From: a virus
Taxonomy: Duplodnaviria > Heunggongvirae > Uroviricota > Caudoviricetes
Virus record (IMG/VR): IMGVR_UViG_2823670853_000002
DNA length: 64,000 nt
Reading direction: 5' to 3' (one strand)
Each line of letters starts with the position of its first letter. The first letter of the stretch is position 1. Shown here piece by piece: positions 4,819 to 64,000 of this stretch. Both the position numbers and the translations under genes were made by a program. The notes under the pieces were generated by a model that was given only the letters and a program-made list of their open reading frames with translations, was not told the DNA's origin and did no database searches.

Positions 4819-5180
4819 CACTATCAGCTATTGAGTTAATGGATCTCAGCGATAAGTTGGATGCTCTGATGTCCAAAGCGGCTACCGCGAGTGGCATGGA
4901 GTTGCTGGATATCAGCGATGAAATTGACCAGATCATGCAACAGATGGGGTACGGCGCGTCCGGCGGTGGTAGTGGCGAGGAAAAACAACCTTCGGAACAT
5001 GATGGTGTGCCAAAACTGGTTGCTGATTTCCTGGCTGATAAATTCGTCGATCAGAGCACCGATGCATTTATCGGTACCTTGCAGGATTTGAGTCAATATG
5101 TTGGCACATACATCGACCTGGACCAGGTTAAACAGCACACTGCGGCATGGATAGCCGCCAACATTAAAGAGGCAGCATAA
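4815..5180 (+). CDS. ddrA: DdrA
   Basis: 121-aa ORF overlapping the darA stop; synteny with the P1 darA operon. Confidence 0.55.
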   Translation: MTLSAIELMDLSDKLDALMSKAATASGMELLDISDEIDQIMQQMGYGASGGGSGEEKQPSEHDGVPKLVADFLADKFVDQSTDAFIGTLQDLSQYVGTYIDLDQVKQHTAAWIAANIKEAA

Positions 5181-5192
5181 GGCGTAACAGGG

Positions 5193-8180
5193 ATGAGCTT
5201 AAGCGATCAGGTGGTAATGGCCACCAGCATAGAAACGCTGATCGAGCTGCTAAAGAACCTGCCCGATTATGGGCGGGTTTCGTATGTGGTGACAGCGAAG
5301 GGAGACGAGGTAAAAACAGCGTTTGATATCGTCGATGCCTCAGCTCTTTTGGTATCCAATACTCTGGATGGGAAAATTAATCCTGACTATCCCCAGGAAC
5401 TTCAGCCGCGCGACCGGACCCGCGCATCCAGCCTTCTTCAGGTTAACCAGATATCCAAAGATTTGCGGCCAGCTCAGCTTACTGATTCCGGTTTATCCAG
5501 CCATGGTGCGCCAATAATTGGTGAGGACAATGCCGTTGAGTCAGGTAATGGGCGGACCATGGGGATCATTAAAGCCTATCAGGACGGTAATGCGGATCGG
5601 TATCGGGAGTACCTGATTGAACATGCGACCGAATTCGGCATACGGCCTGAAAAGGTTGAATCAATGACGGCTCCGGTACTGGTGCGCCGCCGGTTAACGA
5701 AGGTTGACCGTGTTCAGTTTGCCAAGGACTCAAATATTTCTGATCTCCAGGAAATGGCAGCCAGTGAAAAGGCTTTTGTTGATGCCGACAGCATAACACC
5801 GGCGATGATGGCGTTGTTTAACCCGTCAGAAAGTGGAGATCTGCTTAGCCGCAGTAATGACGCGTTTATTCGCGGATTTATGACGCAAGTTGGTGCCACA
5901 CAGGCGGCTGGCCTTGTAACTGAAGATGGGCGACCAACACGGCAACTTGTAGACCGTATACAAAACGCGATCTTTGCCAAGGCATATAAGGATGCGCGCC
6001 TGGTAAGGATGGTTGCAGAAGAACCTGATCCGGATATGCGTAATGTTCTGACGGCGCTTAATGCGGCAGCCAATGATTTTGTCCAGATGCAGGCTTTATC
6101 AGGAGAAGCGCACAAGCAGGCTGTGACAACTATTGTTGATGGCATTGAGACAGCGGATAGCCTCGATAAAAAGGCGCTGGCGGCATTGAAAGATGCGGTA
6201 GACCTGGTAAGGCAATCGAAGGAGTCAGGCCAGCATATTACCGATGTTATTGCTCAGGGGGATATGTTCAGCGAAACGGCCCCGGAAGTGAAAGCACTCG
6301 CGTTGTTCATCGTCGCGAATAACCGTAGCGCGAAGCGTATGGCCACCGCCTTTAAGTTGATGGCTCAACGTATCAATGATGAGTTACAGCACCAGGGCCA
6401 GGCGCTGGGGGATATGTTTGGCGGCGGCGATGTGTCGTTACAGGATATCCTTCGCCAGGTGTCTCAGGAACTGGAAAACGAAGGCATGCAAGGGATATCC
6501 GGCGGTCTTTTCGAGTCCGTTTCCGGCGGTAGTTACAACGGTGTTGCTCCGTATACCAGTTTGCTATTACATCGGGCATCCGGCATCAAAGACATTATTC
6601 ATCTGATCAGGCTGCTTTCCCGCACAGATCCCCAGGATGAACAGCTTGTACAAGTGCTTGCGCATTTTGTTCGAATGCCTGTTGCCGACGTGAAAAAATG
6701 GTGCCGATTATTCGGTATCAGCAATTCGTTACTTCGCGGCTTGTTAAATCACGCATCCTCCCTTGGGCGCGATGGCTTTGACGAGATAGCGCAGGCGATA
6801 AAAAACGGAGATATGCCACCAGCTATTGACTGGTTTTCCATTCGCCCAACCAGGGTGAAAGCATTCCTTAGCGCGGCGCATTCGGCATCACCATTGGCAG
6901 AAATGGTTCAGAGGTTGTCGCTCATATTCACAGACCATACCGCGTTGGTTGATCTGACTCTGGACGAGATGAAAGAAGCCTCCATTCAGTGGGCCGATCG
7001 ACAAAATGAGGTTAACTCAGACTTCTTGCCAGCATTCAGGAAGGCCGTTAGTAAAGCGGATGATGCCCGTGGAATTCTGAAGGCATTTAAGGCATTGCAA
7101 AGTCGTGTTAATAAACATGTCGGTGATATCGATGGGGTAACGGCGGAAGGCCGGGATATTCTTAAAGAGCACGGCATAACGCCAGAGTTTATTGATGAGA
7201 TCAGGACTGATATGCAGCGTGAGGTCGTATCGTCCCTGCAAATCGTAGCCAGAGCGTTGGCGGATGCTAATCCGAAGAGTGCGGCCATTGTTAACCGGGT
7301 TATTGGTGATATTGAAGCATCGGAGGGCATGGGGGCGCTGAAACTCTTCCTTTCGCGAGCGTTTAATCCTAACGGCAATATTCTCCCTGGCATTATTGGT
7401 GAGGCTAAAAAGTATGTCAGTGAAGAAGAGCTTGAGCAGCTTGACCAACTACTTAAGCGATTCTCATATAACCCGCAGATACGCTGGCAAATGAATCAGC
7501 GAAGTATGGGTTCGGTCCACGAGAAAGTGTTATCTGCCATGAACAGTGCGATCGCAAACTCATCCGTATCTGAAGAAAAAGCTCTTGAGTGGGCCGACTC
7601 TTTTATCACAGAAGAAGTGGAAGAAGTCCGCGCTGGACAGAATGGTGGGATAGACCTGCGCAAGGAACTTGCTGATATTTATCGCCTGACCGGCGGGAAA
7701 ATATCGACCTTATCAAAGGTAGTTCACCACCAGGGAAGGGCATATGCAAATCTTAATGGTGTTGTTGCTGTCAATTTGAACGATGAAAATGCAAGTGCAC
7801 TGTGGCACGAGCTGGGTCATCATCTTGAGTACAGTAACCCTGGTTTGTTAGAGAAAGCCCGGTCATTCCTGAAGTCCAATGTTGAAGGGGATAAGCCATC
7901 TTTCGTCAATATCGGTGGGCGTGGCAAGCCTGAATGGTGCTTCAGATCTCGATTGAGTAATATTTATATGGCGAAGGTATACCCGCCAGCCTCAGTAAGT
8001 AACACCGGGAAAATTCGGCAGAAATCACCGACTATTTCCAAAACGTCAGCAACGGAAGTATTCTCTATGGCTCTTCAGTTGTATCATGACAAAGAGGCCG
8101 CTGCCGCATCACTGATGAATGGTGACGGATTGCTGGAACTGTTATTAGGTGTGGCAAAGGAGCTAAATAATGCAGATTAA
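5193..8180 (+). CDS. ddrB: DdrB, large Dar-operon protein with HExxH motif
   Basis: 995-aa ORF; contains LWHELGHHLEY (zincin-like HExxH); synteny with P1 ddrB. Confidence 0.6.
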   Translation: MSLSDQVVMATSIETLIELLKNLPDYGRVSYVVTAKGDEVKTAFDIVDASALLVSNTLDGKINPDYPQELQPRDRTRASSLLQVNQISKDLRPAQLTDSGLSSHGAPIIGEDNAVESGNGRTMGIIKAYQDGNADRYREYLIEHATEFGIRPEKVESMTAPVLVRRRLTKVDRVQFAKDSNISDLQEMAASEKAFVDADSITPAMMALFNPSESGDLLSRSNDAFIRGFMTQVGATQAAGLVTEDGRPTRQLVDRIQNAIFAKAYKDARLVRMVAEEPDPDMRNVLTALNAAANDFVQMQALSGEAHKQAVTTIVDGIETADSLDKKALAALKDAVDLVRQSKESGQHITDVIAQGDMFSETAPEVKALALFIVANNRSAKRMATAFKLMAQRINDELQHQGQALGDMFGGGDVSLQDILRQVSQELENEGMQGISGGLFESVSGGSYNGVAPYTSLLLHRASGIKDIIHLIRLLSRTDPQDEQLVQVLAHFVRMPVADVKKWCRLFGISNSLLRGLLNHASSLGRDGFDEIAQAIKNGDMPPAIDWFSIRPTRVKAFLSAAHSASPLAEMVQRLSLIFTDHTALVDLTLDEMKEASIQWADRQNEVNSDFLPAFRKAVSKADDARGILKAFKALQSRVNKHVGDIDGVTAEGRDILKEHGITPEFIDEIRTDMQREVVSSLQIVARALADANPKSAAIVNRVIGDIEASEGMGALKLFLSRAFNPNGNILPGIIGEAKKYVSEEELEQLDQLLKRFSYNPQIRWQMNQRSMGSVHEKVLSAMNSAIANSSVSEEKALEWADSFITEEVEEVRAGQNGGIDLRKELADIYRLTGGKISTLSKVVHHQGRAYANLNGVVAVNLNDENASALWHELGHHLEYSNPGLLEKARSFLKSNVEGDKPSFVNIGGRGKPEWCFRSRLSNIYMAKVYPPASVSNTGKIRQKSPTISKTSATEVFSMALQLYHDKEAAAASLMNGDGLLELLLGVAKELNNAD

Positions 8181-58113: not shown

Positions 58114-58778
58114 ACTTGCCGGGTACGTCTCCGGCGAGGGCTTCCACCTCCGTATGCTTTTCGGCGCACCGCGCCCTGGCTGCAATTCGGTAACAGGGGA
58201 TGCACAACCCTGGCTTCCAGCGTGATTAGCGCCTTCAGCATGACGGGATATACCCGTAAATTCGTGGAACTGTACCCAAAGTGCTGTTAAGCACCGCTGT
58301 TACGCCGAAAAGAAAACGCAACAGGAAAGGACGCTGACCAACAGATGGCCCCTTCTCGTTCATCTGGTTAATCACACCAGCGCCCTTACCTGTTGTGCCT
58401 CCCCGTTCCCTAATACACAGACGGGGACACTCTGCGGTCGATTTTTTGACGGGGGACGACTCATACCCCGTGGCGTCTGGCTTCTTAGGCCGCTACCATC
58501 ATCAGATCATCGTTTGCATTTACTTTAATGGTCAGTTTCTAAACCGCCGCAAAGTCGCTAACCATGACGAAAACCCTGAAAAAAACGCCCACCCGAAGAT
58601 GGGCAAACTGGAAGCTCGTAACGCACTTCGGCGTTGCCACTTAGGCGCATGGTCAACCTGGCAACTCGGTGGTTTGTCTGGGAGGACTAGGCCCAGCCAT
58701 GCTTACCGCCGCGCCTGTCGCGGCTAACAGCTAAATCGCTCTATAAATCACGATTCATTGAGGCGATATTACACTAAT

Positions 58779-58795
58779 AAATTTATTAGAGCAAT
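58779..58795 (-). promoter_or_regulatory. C1 operator at the head of the ban operon (Op72-like)
   Basis: Minus strand ATTGCTCTAATAAATTT, 17/17 to consensus, upstream of tRNA-tciA-ban. Confidence 0.7.
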
Positions 58796-60804
58796 ATACC
58801 TAAAACGTCATGAGCAACACCTCGAGTGTCCCCCTTACAAGACACAGAACGTCTGGCAAAAAGAGGTTCCACTCTGAAGCCATTGTCATGATAAAGCTCT
58901 CTGATGTTTGGCGCGCCACTGTTAGTAATGAGAACCTTTGCACCTCGGCGATGAGCATCCGTCAACAGAGACACCAGGCGTTTTTGCTCTTCAAACTTAA
59001 AGTCATGACCGGAATAGTTCGTGAATCCCTCTGTATTTGGAAGCGGTTCATATGGCGGATCGCAAAAAATGACATCTCCTTCTCCGGCAGCTTCAATCAC
59101 CGCAGCAAAATCACCACATACAAACTCAGAACGACCTTCCGCACCGAGGAAGGCTTCCATCTCCTGTAATGGGAAATACGGAGTTTTATACTTCCCATAA
59201 CCGACATTGAACTCACCGGCCTGGTTGTAACGCGTCAATCCGTTAAAACAATGTCGGTTCAGGAACAAAAACGCCGCTGCGCGATGTAAATCATCATAGA
59301 CTTGTTTGTTAAACGCATTCCGTACTGCCAGGTATCCTTCCTGTGTGTTGTAGTCCTGGAAAAACTGATGCGCCAGTGTGATAAGTGAATGCGCCTCGCG
59401 TTGCAGAGTCTTGTAAAAGTTAATCAGGTCAGCATTCACATCATTTAGCAGATTTTCCTGGTATCCGGCATTCATGAAGACAGCTCCACCACCGACGAAA
59501 GGTTCAATCAGGCGCTTCCCTTCTGGCAAATAGCGAAAGATTTGTTCCAGAACACCAAATTTTCCACCAGCCCATTTGAATATGGACCGTTCGAATTCTG
59601 CCGCTGGTTTAACTTTTCGCTCTTTTGTTTCACGCCCTTCATTCTGCCGACATGCAGCCTTGGTTATCCGCTCGCCAATCCAGCGCATTACTGGTATCGC
59701 CATACTATTGCCGATCGCTTTGTAACGCGGTCCGTCAGCTGCAAGCATTGCGGCCTCTTCTTCGCTTAAATCTGGATAGTGATTGTGCAGATATGCCAGT
59801 TCATCTGAATTAACTTTTTTACGCTTTTCCGTAGGGATCAACGTATGCCAATCAGGAAAACCTTGCAGCCTTTCACATTCGACAGGGGTAAGACGGCGCA
59901 TTCTACCGTCGCCGAGCAATACAATTGGTGCTTCATGGTTACATGTCAAAGTTGGTGCCGAATTATCGGTTTTTATCTCAGCCCCTCCTTGCCCATGTGC
60001 CATGGCAATTATGTTTGTATCATCGCAAGTTCTGATAGCGATGTTTGAAGTATATCTGGTAGTTTCCTTCCCCTCGCCTCTGCTCGGCGCAATATTCCGG
60101 CGCACGCCTTCGAACTCAAAAAGTACCGTTGCGGGATCGAGGTCTGTTCGAGCACTTGCGACAACAAACACGCGTCGGCGTCGTTGTGCCACTCCGAAGT
60201 ATTGGGCATCAAGGATTCTCCAGGCCACCTTTCGCTGCGGTCCATAAATACAACCACACTGCGGCCACTTTGGAGCATGGCAACCGGTTTTGACATCCCA
60301 CCGCCAGAACGTGTTACTTTTTCGTGATTCAGGTCGATCACCAGGTTCGAATGGCGCATCTTCTCCAGCCAATCCGGCAAGGAAACATCCGAACGCGTTG
60401 TCTGCTGATGACAGGACTCCTGGGACATTTTCCCAGACGATAACTGTCGGTTTGAGGAAGGACTCAGACCGTTTGTCGTCAATTGCATTTGCAAGCTCCA
60501 CATACTTCAAAGTTAGCGCGCCGCGTTCATCATCAAGCCCACCACGTAAGCCCGCGATACTGAATGCCTGACAAGGCGTACCCCCGACGAGCACATCAGG
60601 GGCTTCAATTTCTCCAGCCTGGACTTTTTGGGCGAGTTTTGTCATGTCGCCAAGGTTCGCGACATGGGGCCAGCGGTGCGCAAGAACGGCAGATGGAAAA
60701 GACTCGATTTCAGCAAACCACGCCGGACGCATACCCAACGGTTCCCAGGCAATACTCGCGGCTTCAATTCCACTGCAAACAGATCCATAGCACAGCTCTT
60801 TCAC
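58786..60804 (-). CDS. dmt: Dmt DNA methyltransferase (C5-cytosine-like N-terminal domain fused to Dam-like N6-adenine domain)
   Basis: [11 protein letters not shown] and IVWENV motifs N-terminally; PFVGGG and CDPPY motifs C-terminally. Confidence 0.85.
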
Positions 60805-61706
60805 TGCTTAGCCTCTCCACCAAGGGCATTTACCAGAGCATCAACCAGGCACGAAATTTCACTGGTCAACAGGAAGAAATCTGCGTCCAGTCGCTGCGCA
60901 ACATCTTCACTATCAATATCAGAGTTCTGCTCAAGCAATTCATCCGCAAATTTGACGCTGGTAAGGCTGAAGTTATGGTCCAGTGTAAATTTAATGCGGT
61001 TCTGCCAGTCGAGTGCCAACTTAGTGACGAGCTTGCCAGCTTCCAGGTGTGTGGAAATTTCATCGCTTCCCAAATCCTGCTTTTTCACTCGGGCAATACC
61101 GCCATCCTCAAGCACTGCCTTAAGTTCTGCCGCATCCCCCATTTGAAATCCCTGTGGAGCACTACCATCACGTACCCAGTCGGTCAGCGTTAATTCAATG
61201 GGATTTTCAACACTCAGGGGAACAACAGGAAGAGAACCCAGAGACTTACGCATAAGCGCGAGCATATCCTCTGCCTGCCGCGCGCTGGCATTGATATAGA
61301 TACGTTTAGTTGAACCGTCGTAGATCGCCTGGATAACAGAAAACTTTGAAAAAGCCCGTGGCAGAAGAGAATGCAGAACTTCGTCTTTCAGGGAGTCCTT
61401 CTCTGTTTTCTTAAGTTTACGCGCTTGTTCTTGCTCAAGTTTTTCAATTTTTTCTTGAATAGCTCGCTGGATAACCGGCGGGGGAAGAATTTTTGTTTCG
61501 CGCTTTGCTTCAACAAGGATAAAACCATTTCCATGCATAGCGATAACTTCGGAATTATCACCAAATGGCGATACAAAACCGAACTTGGCCATATCCTGAC
61601 TACCGCATGGCGTGAAAAGGATCATTTTCTTTTTATCTTCTAAGTCGGTCAGATCCGCCTCACGAGAAAGTTTATAAATAGTAATGTTTTTCCAGTGCTT
61701 AAACAT
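60801..61706 (-). CDS. hrdC: HrdC, RdgC-like recombination-associated protein
   Basis: Collinear with E. coli RdgC (e.g. [37 protein letters not shown]); start at MFKHWKN (track start 61820). Confidence 0.9.
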
Positions 61707-61983
61707 GTTGTAACCCTTGAATATCAACCACAGAAAGCTCGTCTTTGTAGAAAAAGGCCAGGTTGTGGCACCCCCTCGTTTGAGCGTATGAGCTGGGACC
61801 AATTTCGTTCTTCCAGACAAATGGCTTCAAATCCGTACGGCGAAGCATAAAAACGCGATTTGTTCCGCTCTGATTCCCAATGAGGCAAAAGCCTTCTTTC
61901 ACCTTGATAGCCTGCAAGTTGTCGAGTTCACCGCTGGTTACACGGCTATCGAACTCCTTGCGGCTTATTAGCTCCATCTGCAT
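61699..61983 (-). CDS. hypothetical protein upstream of hrdC (position of P1 uhr)
   Basis: About 94-aa ORF from MQMELISRK, overlapping the hrdC start; operator upstream. Confidence 0.45.
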
Positions 61984-62054
61984 CTGACGACTCCAAACAA
62001 ATGCCCATTGAAGGGCGATGGCTGAATGGTACCGAAAACACGACATAAAAAACA

Positions 62055-62071
62055 ATATTTATTAGAGCAAT
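62055..62071 (-). promoter_or_regulatory. C1 operator upstream of the uhr-hrdC-dmt string
   Basis: Minus strand ATTGCTCTAATAAATAT (16/17). Confidence 0.6.
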
Positions 62072-62152
62072 TTTATAATGAGTAAACGCCATGTAGACCA
62101 CAAACAACCTAAGTTAAAATAACGAAAATCAGAGCAAATCATTGGTGATAAC

Positions 62153-62437
62153 GTGGCAAGTATTGCAACAAAAGACAGCATTTGTTCGGGGCACGGAGGA
62201 TTCCCATCCAGGCCTCCTGTAGAGAGTGAACCACTACTTAAAGTCAACGGAGTAGAAGTGTTAGTTGATGGTAAGCAATATGCACAGCATACCGATGGAA
62301 ACAGTACGCACGGTGGGCAAGCTATATCAACCAGGGCATGGTTTACCGTCAATGGTAAAGGGGTCGTATGCGTTGGTGACCCTGTTTCATGCGGCTCTAC
62401 CGTAGCATCAGGAGACGGCCTGGTTCAGGTAAGTTAG
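62153..62437 (+). CDS. PAAR-like domain protein
   Basis: 94 aa with repeated hydrophobic-x-V-N-G and GD...C, H..GG elements typical of PAAR spike-tip proteins. Confidence 0.45.
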   Translation: MASIATKDSICSGHGGFPSRPPVESEPLLKVNGVEVLVDGKQYAQHTDGNSTHGGQAISTRAWFTVNGKGVVCVGDPVSCGSTVASGDGLVQVS

Positions 62438-62445
62438 GAGATATC

Positions 62446-63216
62446 ATGCTGGAAAAAGACTACCAGTTATCCGCATATAAAAAATTGGCCGCAGCCGGTG
62501 GGATGAAAACACCTGGTGCCATAACATCAGCACGAAACAGTGCTAACACGGCAAAACAGCTTGCAGAAGAATTGACGGGATTAATTCTGGATACAATTGT
62601 CTATCCCGACACTATTACCAGCTATGTTTCAACGATCAGAACAACCACAACCGGCTTAACGAACATTGGAGAACTGGCAACTAAGCACGCGGACCTGTTG
62701 GCTGATTATGCAGATCTGTCAATGCTGCTTCAACTCGATATTGGTTGGGATGTTTACTGCCGTGCTAATGAGCGAGAAGTTTCAGAACTGCCGATCTCTA
62801 TTGCCATTGGTGATGTGAATATTACTAAATCGCTTGAGGACGCTGTTAATGCGCTTAATACATCAAGTTTAGTCGCTGCTATGGGGGAGATTAACCAGAC
62901 CCTTAACACTGGCTCAGGAAGCTCGTCAGGCTCTGGTTCAGGCGGCGGAACTGCCACTCCCCCACCAGCACTAACAGAAGAACAAATTGAATCTCTGAAA
63001 GTAGCAACTGAACAGTTTGGGGTTGTTTTCAACCAGACAACAGCGCCCACAACTGCGTTACAACAGCAGTATGAACGAGCGAATGAAAGCGCCAACGTAG
63101 CCATAACTGCTTATAACCATGCTATCGGTACCGCGCTTGCGGAAGCATCAGCAAAGAACCACGGCAGCCTGGCGGCTGCAAATCGTGGTGTGGCAGAATA
63201 TGAGCTTTCAGAGTAA
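62446..63216 (+). CDS. hypothetical protein with internal Gly/Ser-rich linker
   Basis: 257 aa from MLEKDYQ with TAGGAG RBS (track start 62389); TGSGSSSGSGSGGGTATPPP linker between two domains. Confidence 0.5.
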   Translation: MLEKDYQLSAYKKLAAAGGMKTPGAITSARNSANTAKQLAEELTGLILDTIVYPDTITSYVSTIRTTTTGLTNIGELATKHADLLADYADLSMLLQLDIGWDVYCRANEREVSELPISIAIGDVNITKSLEDAVNALNTSSLVAAMGEINQTLNTGSGSSSGSGSGGGTATPPPALTEEQIESLKVATEQFGVVFNQTTAPTTALQQQYERANESANVAITAYNHAIGTALAEASAKNHGSLAAANRGVAEYELSE

Positions 63217-63235
63217 CCATCCAGAATGAGTTCCC

Positions 63236-63508
63236 ATGTCACACAACCTGGAGCACCAGAAAGTCCACACCAGAATGGTGAAAGAGGTTCTGAAAGCCGT
63301 CGCCAGGGCCAATAATCACCCTTATCAGTCTGTATTTACAGACTTTATCGCCGGTCATCCCTCCTGTACGGTCTGTTTCTGGGAAACCTTCCACAAAATG
63401 TACCCGGATTCACCGTACGAATACGTCACGTTCTGCCATACCTGCCGTCGTTTTGATTTATACGAAACTGAAGCGGAGATGAAGGCGGATGACCCGAAGT
63501 GGTGGTGA
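63236..63508 (+). CDS. hypothetical Cys/His-rich small protein abutting the transposase
   Basis: 90-aa ORF whose end overlaps the transposase start; could be a target-gene remnant or an IS-associated ORF. Confidence 0.35.
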   Translation: MSHNLEHQKVHTRMVKEVLKAVARANNHPYQSVFTDFIAGHPSCTVCFWETFHKMYPDSPYEYVTFCHTCRRFDLYETEAEMKADDPKWW

Positions 63509-64000
63509 TTTTCAGCCCCGACCGCTGAAACGCCTGTTCACAGCCAACCAGTGCTGGACATCCTTCCTGGATGCGGGCGGCCTGCGCGATATCGAGGTTG
63601 AGGCTGTCACAAAAATGCTGGCCTGCGGCACGCGGATACTGGGTGTGAAGGAATACAACTGCGATAAACCTGAGTGCCCCCACGTCAGATACGTCACTAA
63701 CTCATGTGGCAGCCGTGCCTGCCCGTCCTGCGGAAAAAAGGCCACAGACCTGTGGATAGCGACACAGCTGAATCGTCTTCCTGACTGCGACTGGGTGCAC
63801 CTGGTCTTCACCCTGCCGGACACGCTGTGGCCGGTGTTCGAAAGCAACCGCTGGCTGCTGAATGACGTGTGCCGTCTGGCGGTGGAGAATCTGCTGTATG
63901 CAGCCCGGAAACGGGGTCTGGAACCCGGTATCTTCTGCGCCATCCATACGTATGGCCGTCGTCTCAACTGGCATCCGCATGTGCATGTGTCAGTGACCTG
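63489..64000 (+). mobile_element. IS91-family (rolling-circle HUH/Y2) transposase gene, 5' portion; continues beyond window
   Basis: Translation MTRSGGDFQPRPLKRLFTANQCWTSFLDAGG...CPHV...CGSRACPSCGKK...HTYGRRLNWHPHVHV shows the N-terminal zinc-binding region and HUH-type motifs of IS91/ISCR-like transposases. Confidence 0.7.

Follow-up and report, generated by a model that had tools for sequence, protein, structure and literature searches.

The 64,000-nt window, by which we mean the whole stretch of DNA analysed, ends on its right side in a P1-type spike-tip locus that is cut short by an insertion sequence (IS). Taken jointly, the evidence makes it very probable that this is the P1 upfC-upfB locus with the terIS end of an IS1294-like element at position 63156, that a 90-aa open reading frame (ORF) beside the junction is carried by the IS, that the C-terminal tail of UpfB has been swapped, and that the arrangement most likely arose by transposase-mediated deletion. 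The biology of the locus is already known for P1, and the observation is correct but not new. It matters little, as the segment is textbook P1, cryo-EM work of 2026 has assigned its proteins to the baseplate and the IS is common on resistance plasmids; the base-exact IS boundary is of minor value. All features listed by a first-pass annotation made from the DNA letters were present at the places given, small corrections aside.

Spike-tip genes in their P1 context

Window DNA at 61500-63158 was 95-98% identical to P1, P7, SJ46, RCS47 and related phages, and the order of hrdC, uhr, upfC and upfB was unchanged between the window and P1-type phages; on sequence grounds, the right end of the window is assigned to the upfC-upfB segment of a P1-like phage-plasmid. 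The phage features were:

52922-53554, gp5 ORF (gpV-like OB domain), 8.6 kb from upfC
62055-62071, minus strand, C1 repressor operator equivalent to P1 Odmt/Op68 (ATTGCTCTAATAAATAT, one mismatch to the consensus, 16/17)
62070-62097, minus strand, predicted sigma-70-like leftward promoter equivalent to P1 Pdmt (consensus scan and P1 annotation)
62153-62437, plus strand, upfC, intact, with a GTG start, encoding a 94-aa PAAR/gp5.4-type spike-tip protein (profile, PDB and PHROG matches)
62446-63216, plus strand, upfB ("tripod"), 256 aa, with native residues 1-236 and IS-read residues 237-256 (PHROG 1559 and AF2)
62911-62949, plus strand, Gly/Ser linker of UpfB (aa 156-168), joining the N-terminal helical domain to the C-terminal helical hairpin

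UpfC was identical to its P1 counterpart at 92 of 94 residues, with I71V and A86S, both conservative, as the only substitutions. In a PDB sequence search it matched chain 9vyi_A, "UpfC", over the full length (98% identity, E = 2.5e-60), and further matches were obtained to T4 gp5.4 (5iv5/4ku0; E = 6.5e-8 and 9.1e-8), the PAAR protein 4jiv_D (E = 2.9e-4) and PHROG 281, "PAAR motif" (E = 2.2e-30). These results bear out the initial description of the 94-aa protein as PAAR-like. The proposed profile search with Pfam PAAR_motif (PF05488) gave E = 7.4e-6 and 26.5 bits, with the gathering cut-off of 27.0 lying just above the score, and did not overturn that assignment. Against NCBIfam T6SS_PAAR_dom, UpfC scored 36.2 bits, far under the equivalog cut-off of 124, which places it in the phage gp5.4 branch and not among the T6SS PAAR proteins. 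Set beside P1 UpfC, T4 gp5.4 and T6SS PAAR-repeat proteins, its closest known systems, it has in common that it is a lone, small PAAR domain lacking any extension.

The likeness to P1 extends to a cognate gp5 spike gene in the same genome and to the order uhr, Odmt, upfC-upfB. The gp5 ORF scored 21.1 bits against Phage_base_V (cut-off 23.8). The annotated spacing of about 9 kb between the pair and the spike gene agrees with the exact distance; the pair does lie far from the baseplate genes, but this separation is the native P1 gene order according to the P1 annotation. By cryo-EM of P1, one UpfC copy forms the tip at the blunt end of the trimeric, beta-helical gp5 spike and the "tripod" UpfB is attached to this tip, with three trimers in P1; the placement of UpfB in the P1 baseplate is an AlphaFold3 model fitted into a medium-resolution map (PMC12810830). 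By analogy, window UpfC is predicted to cap the trimeric gp5 tail spike as a single-copy cone of PAAR/gp5.4 type, and gp5, UpfC and UpfB together to be the membrane-piercing tail end. Experiment on the 98%-identical P1 proteins upholds the initial reading of a PAAR protein with a physical partner (PMC12810830; PDB 9vyi).

A pattern search found C1 operators at 15 places in the window, where chance alone would give 0.21. The pair had been described as lying downstream of such an operator, and the site exists, but in P1 it serves the divergent dmt operon: Odmt/Op68 overlaps the leftward promoter of uhr-hrdC-dmt in the P1 annotation. The Pdmt-type promoter is predicted to drive uhr-hrdC-dmt and not upfC, and a simple consensus scan gave no plus-strand sigma-70-like promoter upstream of upfC.

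An IS1294-like end inside upfB

The remaining features belong to the IS and its boundary:

63155-63156, junction of P1-like DNA and terIS, with P1 homology to 63155 and the IS from 63156
63156-64000, plus strand, leftmost 845 bp of an IS1294-like element (IS91 family, 1,713 bp in full), the remainder lying beyond the window
63156-63183, plus strand, terIS, with terminal GAAC (GTTC on the transposed strand) and then a subterminal hairpin, GCAGCC-TGGC-GGCTGC (63164-63179)
63236-63508, plus strand, 90-aa accessory ORF inside the IS, overlapping the tnpA start by 20 nt
63489-64000, plus strand, 5' part of tnpA, the first 170 of 402 codons (ATG at 63489), with a zinc-binding domain and the HUH motif HPHVH (63972-63986)

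Alignment of the junction, as the first-pass annotation had proposed, put the left end of the IS at 63156, 61 nt before the present upfB stop. Seven unrelated left flanks (the window and loci L002-L007) met the same end, GAACCACGGCAGCC..., and the IS match began at the same base in IncC, IncF, IncI and IncY plasmids. Comparison of the window with L002 gave an upfB match at 62100-63155 and an IS match at 63156-64000, and copies on E. coli, Salmonella and Klebsiella plasmids were 100% identical over the 845 bp of the IS in the window. The proposal that the IS had remodelled the locus was supported, with the boundary inside upfB and ppfA, mlp and upfA absent from the window; an IS boundary well downstream, with the P1-like locus intact, is not what we found.

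The terIS layout, GAAC followed by CACG-GCAGCC-TGGC-GGCTGC at 63156-63179, has both the GTTC end and the subterminal palindrome, in agreement with the published description (GTTC cleavage site, subterminal palindrome, no terminal inverted repeats; PMC13181058). The TnpA fragment matched Zn_Tnp_IS91 (E = 4.4e-23) and the start of Y2_Tnp (E = 2e-7), consistent with the annotated IS91-family transposase running off the window, and an identical full-length copy of the transposase scored 311.9 bits against NF033538 transpos_IS91 (cut-off 125). Similarities to the rolling-circle HUH-Y2 elements IS1294/IS1294b comprise the GTTC-ending terIS with its subterminal hairpin, the length of ~1.7 kb, the 402-aa transposase and, from related loci, a GTTC/GAAC target beside oriIS without target duplication. 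The right end of the window copy lies past 64000; the oriIS flank was GAAC in the related loci L002-L005, L009-L011 and L019-L022, and flanks were contiguous in P1 coordinates at six related insertion sites. We found no statement of the length or sequence of IS1294b in the literature, and therefore call the element only IS1294-like. A sister 1,691-bp IS1294-like element beside ISEcp1/blaCTX-M (L008) had the first 28 nt of terIS in common with it and tnpA DNA that was 94.5% identical, but carried an unrelated 62-aa ORF, whereas the window IS has a 330-nt leader with the 90-aa ORF between these 28 nt and tnpA.

Replacement of the conserved UpfB tail

The partner of the PAAR protein had been described as a 257-aa two-domain protein with a Gly/Ser linker; domains and linker were recovered, but its length is 256 aa. 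The structure prediction suggested for it, run with AF2, gave an all-helical protein with two domains split by a low-pLDDT linker (<50 over residues 158-169/170 in both UpfB models). P1 UpfB (PHROG 1559) likewise has two helical domains and a Gly/Ser linker, and this profile matched window residues 1-240 over its positions 1-241 of 263 (E = 9.5e-125). The main UpfB cluster (P0060) was 95% identical to the window protein, and residues 1-236 were collinear with the P1-like UpfB of plasmid AP027786, with 2 substitutions therein.

The difference lies at the C-terminus, where the last 26 residues of the native protein (NKxSTASAVAALVPDSVLDELNKAAQ) give way in the window to 20 unrelated IS-read residues, KNHGSLAAANRGVAEYELSE. 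The tail motif TASAVAALVPxSVLDEL was kept in 18 of 18 aligned homologues, with identity down to 42%, and is missing from window UpfB. In the AF2 monomer model the native tail formed two short helices of modest pLDDT (~46-63), and the IS-derived tail was modelled as disordered (pLDDT 31-36). The window provides a natural allele of UpfB without the conserved tail at its C-terminus, and the exact fused protein had no record in the collections searched. UpfB had no match among PDB sequences, and a Foldseek search of its AF2 model against the PDB returned generic helical bundles only, none at E ≤ 1e-3. In BFVD, Foldseek matches to phage DUF7217 proteins were too weak to support a relationship (E 1.7e-3 to 2.4e-2, TM 0.3-0.44).

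Origin of the junction

Compared with the closest IS-bearing relative (L002; plasmid AP027786), 1,078 bp are missing at the junction, namely the 3' end of upfB, ppfA, mlp and most of upfA. Neither the ppfA-mlp-upfA segment nor a second IS copy was found elsewhere in the 64-kb window, which excludes inversion or relocation within it, and the same upfB-IS junction was not found in PLSDB plasmids, RefSeq complete E. coli genomes or the phage collection. The native sequence after the junction is TAAG (CTTA), a one-base variant of the canonical CAAG/CTTG. In two P1-like plasmids with terIS-flush deletions (L003 and L012) the deleted DNA begins with CAAG, where that of the window begins with TAAG; CAAG occurs 7 times in 2,134 nt, and simple arithmetic from these counts puts the probability of two of three endpoints falling there by chance at ~3e-5. 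The terIS-flush deletions at CAAG point to a transposase-mediated adjacent deletion in the window, which is the most likely origin of the junction, and adjacent deletions with IS1294-type insertions have been reported (PMC5043248). Such a deletion would have started at the terIS end and extended leftward as far as a cleavage tetranucleotide resembling CTTG (CTTA in this case), upfB losing its last 26 codons at the junction and gaining 20 IS-derived ones, and the same event would also have taken ppfA, mlp and most of upfA. In P1, upfB, upfC, ppfA, mlp and upfA are non-essential and dispensable for plaque formation (PMC10695390), and the phage-plasmid would be expected to remain viable, its spike cap intact and its tripod damaged at the C-terminus.

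Direct insertion of the IS into upfB at 63155/63156 with nothing deleted, such that the rest of upfB (TAAGGYCAGCACAGCC...) and then intact ppfA, mlp and upfA would follow beyond the IS, is formally indistinguishable from deletion within the window, because the right IS junction lies outside it, and the same IS family does occur as simple insertions in upfB of other P1-like plasmids (P1-equivalent 5139/5140, 5171/5172 and 5573/5574). We nonetheless consider it unlikely, since simple insertions of the IS or its sister in the upfB-upfA region fell directly 5' of GAAC at each of the six independent sites found, without target duplication, whereas the window junction precedes native TAAG, closer to the CAAG of the deletion junctions in L003 and L012. 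Homologous recombination between direct-repeat IS copies in upfB and upfA seems slightly less probable again. It would drop the interval without any transposase deletion and leave an identical-looking product, and insertions are frequent here, six or more sites falling within a 1.6-kb hot spot, but it needs the IS to have gone first into TAAG, a non-canonical site, and into CAAG in two other deletion-type plasmids, when every simple insertion observed uses GAAC; nor is there a second IS copy in the 64-kb window.

T6SS PAAR proteins often carry or recruit effectors, and the gene pair might on that basis be an effector-delivery or toxin module in the T6SS PAAR-effector style, mobilised into the phage by the IS. 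The co-mobilisation of terIS-adjacent DNA by one-ended transposition in the IS91 family (PMC13181058) would be in keeping with this. The idea is effectively refuted and has hardly any probability left: P1, P7 and dozens of relatives without the IS have upfC-upfB at the same place, and UpfB, a structural virion component (PMC12810830), is all-helical in AF2 and showed no domain of an enzyme or toxin in Pfam, NCBIfam or PHROGs. Of the roles initially suggested for the PAAR protein, capping of the spike agrees with P1 cryo-EM, but effector carriage or recruitment does not fit a bare 94-aa domain with no extension and no sign of a toxin. 

With transposase-mediated deletion as the preferred origin, IS1294-type elements appear to make terIS-flush deletions ending at CTTG-like sites, and the non-essential upfB-ppfA-mlp-upfA segment takes repeated IS1294-type hits (at least six GAAC sites).

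The accessory ORF of the element

The 90-aa Cys/His ORF had been noted to overlap the transposase start, as it does by 20 nt (63236-63508 against the ATG at 63489). Remodelling of the locus by the IS and membership of this ORF in the IS had been offered as alternatives, and both are true, the left IS end lying 80 nt upstream of the ORF. It is annotated in unrelated plasmids as WP_000019163.1 and accompanied tnpA in every context examined; homologues also lie upstream of tnpA in relatives 71% and 43% identical, and the same overlap layout recurs in L013 and L014. Searches of Pfam, NCBIfam and PHROGs returned no annotation for it. One CxxC (C67/C70) was nearly invariant across the family, and the dN/dS of 0.146 indicates purifying selection. 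Judged from its genomic context, the ORF belongs to the IS and has no relation to the phage tail.

In IS91, orf121 is a regulator of transposition (PMC13181058). The window ORF resembles it as a small ORF directly upstream of and overlapping tnpA, in its C-terminal CxxC and in its conservation with the transposase across diverged copies, but orf121 has 121 aa and a 1-nt overlap compared with 90 aa and 20 nt here. No sequence homology with Orf121 was detected, BLASTP giving E = 0.024 over 48 aa in a single comparison (IS91 copy, L017 815-1177, 121-aa ORF) and hhalign with the 28-member family profile a probability of 1.5%. By analogy, the 90-aa ORF could tune terIS recognition, and hence one-ended transposition and terIS-flush deletions. 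A 2026 paper describes such an ORF as carried by IS91 alone, a published statement that is qualified by a selected 90-aa ORF overlapping tnpA in an IS1294-like subgroup. We offer two tentative and rather doubtful readings: that the ORF, strongly conserved and coupled to tnpA, may be a functional Orf121 counterpart in IS1294-type elements, and that the window UpfB allele, without the most conserved tail of its family, would mark a natural tripod-defective P1-like phage; if true, this phage could be used to test the role of the tripod in adsorption or penetration.

A remote family member at 32% identity (P0133) was not IS-associated, so the wider family of the 90-aa ORF is not exclusively IS-borne.

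Locus layout and P1 identity

The system at the end of the window is already known: cryo-EM has solved or placed P1 UpfC and UpfB, and next to upfB lies what is, judged by its sequence, a common IS1294-like element of the IS91 family. Only three items are new, namely a strain-specific upfB allele clipped by the IS, evidence for recurrent site-specific deletions on the terIS side (the left end of the IS here) in the non-essential upfB-upfA segment, and a conserved IS-borne 90-aa ORF. When ORFs were listed and 61500-64000 was read directly, every object of the first-pass annotation was recovered where it had been placed, and its interpretation was supported; the linker-containing partner, described there as 257 aa, counts 256.

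Features of the locus (window coordinates, strand, description)
58786-60804, minus, dmt
60801-61820, minus, RdgC-family gene (Pfam RdgC, E 8.5e-98)
upstream of upfC, minus, short uhr-like ORF
62153-62437, plus, upfC, 94-aa ORF with GTG start
62446-63216, plus, upfB, 256-aa ORF, ATG preceded by AGGAG, nine bases after upfC
63236-63508, plus, 90-aa ORF
63489 (ATG) to past the window end, plus, tnpA, IS91-family transposase gene

The stretch 61500-63158 is 95-98% identical to P1, P7, SJ46, RCS47 and other punaviruses, with HrdC, Uhr, UpfC and UpfB as the annotations beneath the match, and the gene order (uhr, Odmt, upfC-upfB) is that of the P1 record. Within dmt, which has 672 codons vs 754 in P1, 184 nt without BLAST match (59899-60082) stand in place of 430 nt of P1 (2154-2583), an in-frame replacement, 246 nt shorter, between the two methyltransferase halves.

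The C1 operator (62055-62071, minus strand, one mismatch) occupies the position of P1 Odmt/Op68, which the P1 record shows between uhr and upfC, overlapping Pdmt, a leftward promoter. It lies upstream of upfC as first described, but since a promoter scan found a Pdmt-like promoter adjoining it on the minus strand, it neighbours upfC but in P1 is part of the divergent dmt operon. It is one of fifteen C1-operator-like 17-mers (≤3 mismatches) that occur over 10680-62071 vs 0.2 expected by chance, a pattern consistent with an intact P1-type immunity regulon; among them is a bivalent Oban pair at 58768-58795. UpfC and UpfB are virion proteins, yet a simple scan of 62072-62152 detected no sigma-70-like promoter on the plus strand ahead of upfC, and the P1 record annotates none there.

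UpfC and the UpfB tripod

The 94-aa protein is UpfC, a spike tip of PAAR/gp5.4 type, differing from P1 UpfC at 2 of 94 residues. A profile search for the PAAR-like nature proposed for it gave 26.5 bits against Pfam PAAR_motif (E 7.4e-6, just below the cut-off of 27), and it matched PHROG 281 'PAAR motif' (E 2e-30) and PDB sequences (9vyi_A 'UpfC', E 2.5e-60; T4 gp5.4, 5iv5/4ku0, E about 1e-7; PAAR protein 4jiv_D, E 2.9e-4). In the 2026 cryo-EM study of P1, one UpfC monomer sits atop the trimeric gp5 spike, likened closely to T4 gp5-gp5.4 (PMC12810830). The gp5 homologue in the window (52922-53554, a weak Phage_base_V OB domain match) is 8.6 kb from upfC, close to the 9 kb estimated earlier, and this arrangement is native to P1.

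The product of the 256-aa ORF is the 'tripod' protein UpfB (PHROG 1559, E 9.5e-125), whose homologues come solely from P1-like elements in E. coli, Salmonella and their relatives. In P1, UpfB is described as three trimers that attach to the tip of the spike, where it was modelled by AlphaFold3 only, in a medium-resolution map (PMC12810830); the PDB sequences searched contained no solved structure for it. Our AF2 models reached pLDDT 83.

Predicted parts of UpfB (AF2)
residues 4-155, helical N-domain
residues 156-170, Gly/Ser linker, disordered
residues 178-239, long helical hairpin
residues 241-261, two short C-terminal helices, native protein only

Foldseek returned no convincing structural relatives. 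The native model weakly resembled an uncharacterised protein of Salmonella phage 38 and phage proteins of ~240 aa that carry the DUF7217 annotation, from Pectobacterium phage Wc4 and Serratia phage vB_SmaA_3M (probability 1.0, E 1.7e-3 to 2.4e-2, TM 0.3-0.44); on these models, they may be analogous tail-tip proteins.

The IS has remodelled this locus, one of the two options raised at first reading: UpfB is native only to residue 236, and its final 20 residues (KNHGSLAAANRGVAEYELSE) are translated from the IS end. Within the 26 residues lost, NKxSTASAVAALVPDSVLDELNKAAQ, lies one of the family's best-conserved stretches, retained in homologues down to 42% identity, and AF2 predicts disorder in the tail that replaces them (pLDDT 31-36). 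In CRISPRi experiments upfB, upfC, ppfA, mlp and upfA were all non-essential for P1 plaque formation (PMC10695390). Neither the upfB/IS junction nor the fused UpfB was found in PLSDB, RefSeq complete E. coli genomes, or the phage set, protein and contig collections.

The IS1294-like element and the origin of the junction

Homology to P1 and most P1-like plasmids stops at 63155. Against the IncY P1-like plasmid AP027786 (L002), 62100-63155 aligns to upfB, and 63156-64000 is 100% identical to DNA lying 1,078 bp farther along. In unrelated plasmids (IncC Salmonella, IncF Shigella, IncI Klebsiella and E. coli, a tet(A) plasmid) the IS match begins at the same base as in the window. Aligned copies delimit a 1,713-bp element, GAACCACGGCAGCC...TTTCCTATACGT, whose left flanks all differ and whose right flank is usually GAAC. 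Its left end carries the cleavage tetranucleotide GTTC (plus strand GAAC) and a subterminal hairpin, as described for terIS of IS801, IS1294 and IS1294b (PMC13181058). The transposase fragment contains the IS91 zinc-binding domain and HUH motif, and an identical full-length transposase passes the NCBIfam IS91 model. A sister 1,691-bp element beside ISEcp1/blaCTX-M (L008) begins with the same 28 nt and has a tnpA that is 94.5% identical, but its leader is unrelated. On all these features we call the element IS1294-like.

The eleven P1-like or P1-fragment-carrying plasmids examined hold IS1294-type elements in the upfB-upfA interval. Simple insertions fell at six sites, each of them 5' of a GAAC and with no duplication of the target (P1-equivalent 5139/5140, 5171/5172, 5573/5574, 6464/6465, 6602/6603 and 6734/6735). 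The non-essential upfB-ppfA-mlp-upfA segment is an IS1294-type hot spot, with at least six distinct GAAC sites in 1.6 kb (P1-equivalent 5139-6735; loci L002, L003, L009-L012 and L019-L022). Several of these plasmids typed 'IncHI1B' by MOB-suite (L003, which is CP099021, L009-L011 and L019-L022) carry the P1-like segment beside a RepB-family initiator, and the label seems to refer to a phage-plasmid replicon, not a true IncHI1 backbone.

In three plasmids the oriIS side was flush with a target site and DNA was missing on the terIS side: P1 positions 5363-6485 in L003, 6042-6484 in L012, and a large deletion in L010. The first four bases of the deleted DNA are CAAG in L003 and L012 but TAAG in the window, so that the endpoints on the bottom (transposed) strand read CTTG, CTTG and CTTA. 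With seven CAAG in 2,134 nt, the chance of two of three endpoints falling on it is about 3e-5. CTTG-like sequences are among the cleavage-type tetranucleotides of the IS91 family (PMC13181058), and adjacent deletions accompanying IS1294 insertions have been reported (PMC5043248). The simplest reading is that the transposase would catalyse removal of the DNA between terIS and a CTTG-like site downstream, and the window junction most likely arose in this way; the 64-kb window contains no ppfA, mlp or upfA. Direct insertion at a non-canonical TAAG in upfB is compatible with a window that ends before the right end of the IS, and we consider it improbable. Recombination between two IS copies is a likewise improbable origin of the junction, the right end again lying beyond the window; no second copy was found within the 64 kb. 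The native 3' end of upfB is lost in every scenario considered.

A conserved ORF within the IS

The 90-aa ORF, left at first reading as a possible part of the IS, does belong to it, starting 80 nt inside the element and lying beside tnpA in every context examined. Relatives 71% (L013, 3001-3273) and 43% identical (L014, 508-777) likewise overlap a downstream IS91-family tnpA. Between the window and L013, the ORF has a dN/dS of 0.146, lower than the 0.326 of tnpA, which indicates that the ORF is a protein-coding gene under selection. An exhaustive HMMER search gathered 78 representative clusters, mostly of 75-105 aa, whose near-invariant residues include C67 and C70 and exclude the first CxxC. 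Orf121 of IS91 curbs transposition and enhances the recognition of terIS, and IS91 is said to be unique in its family in having such an ORF (PMC13181058, 2026); the 90-aa ORF resembles Orf121 in position only, with no detectable homology to the copy from L017. In a subgroup of IS1294-like elements, a conserved 90-aa ORF overlaps the start of tnpA; in the 1,691-bp sister element, a 62-aa ORF unrelated to it takes that place (L008, 2285-2473).
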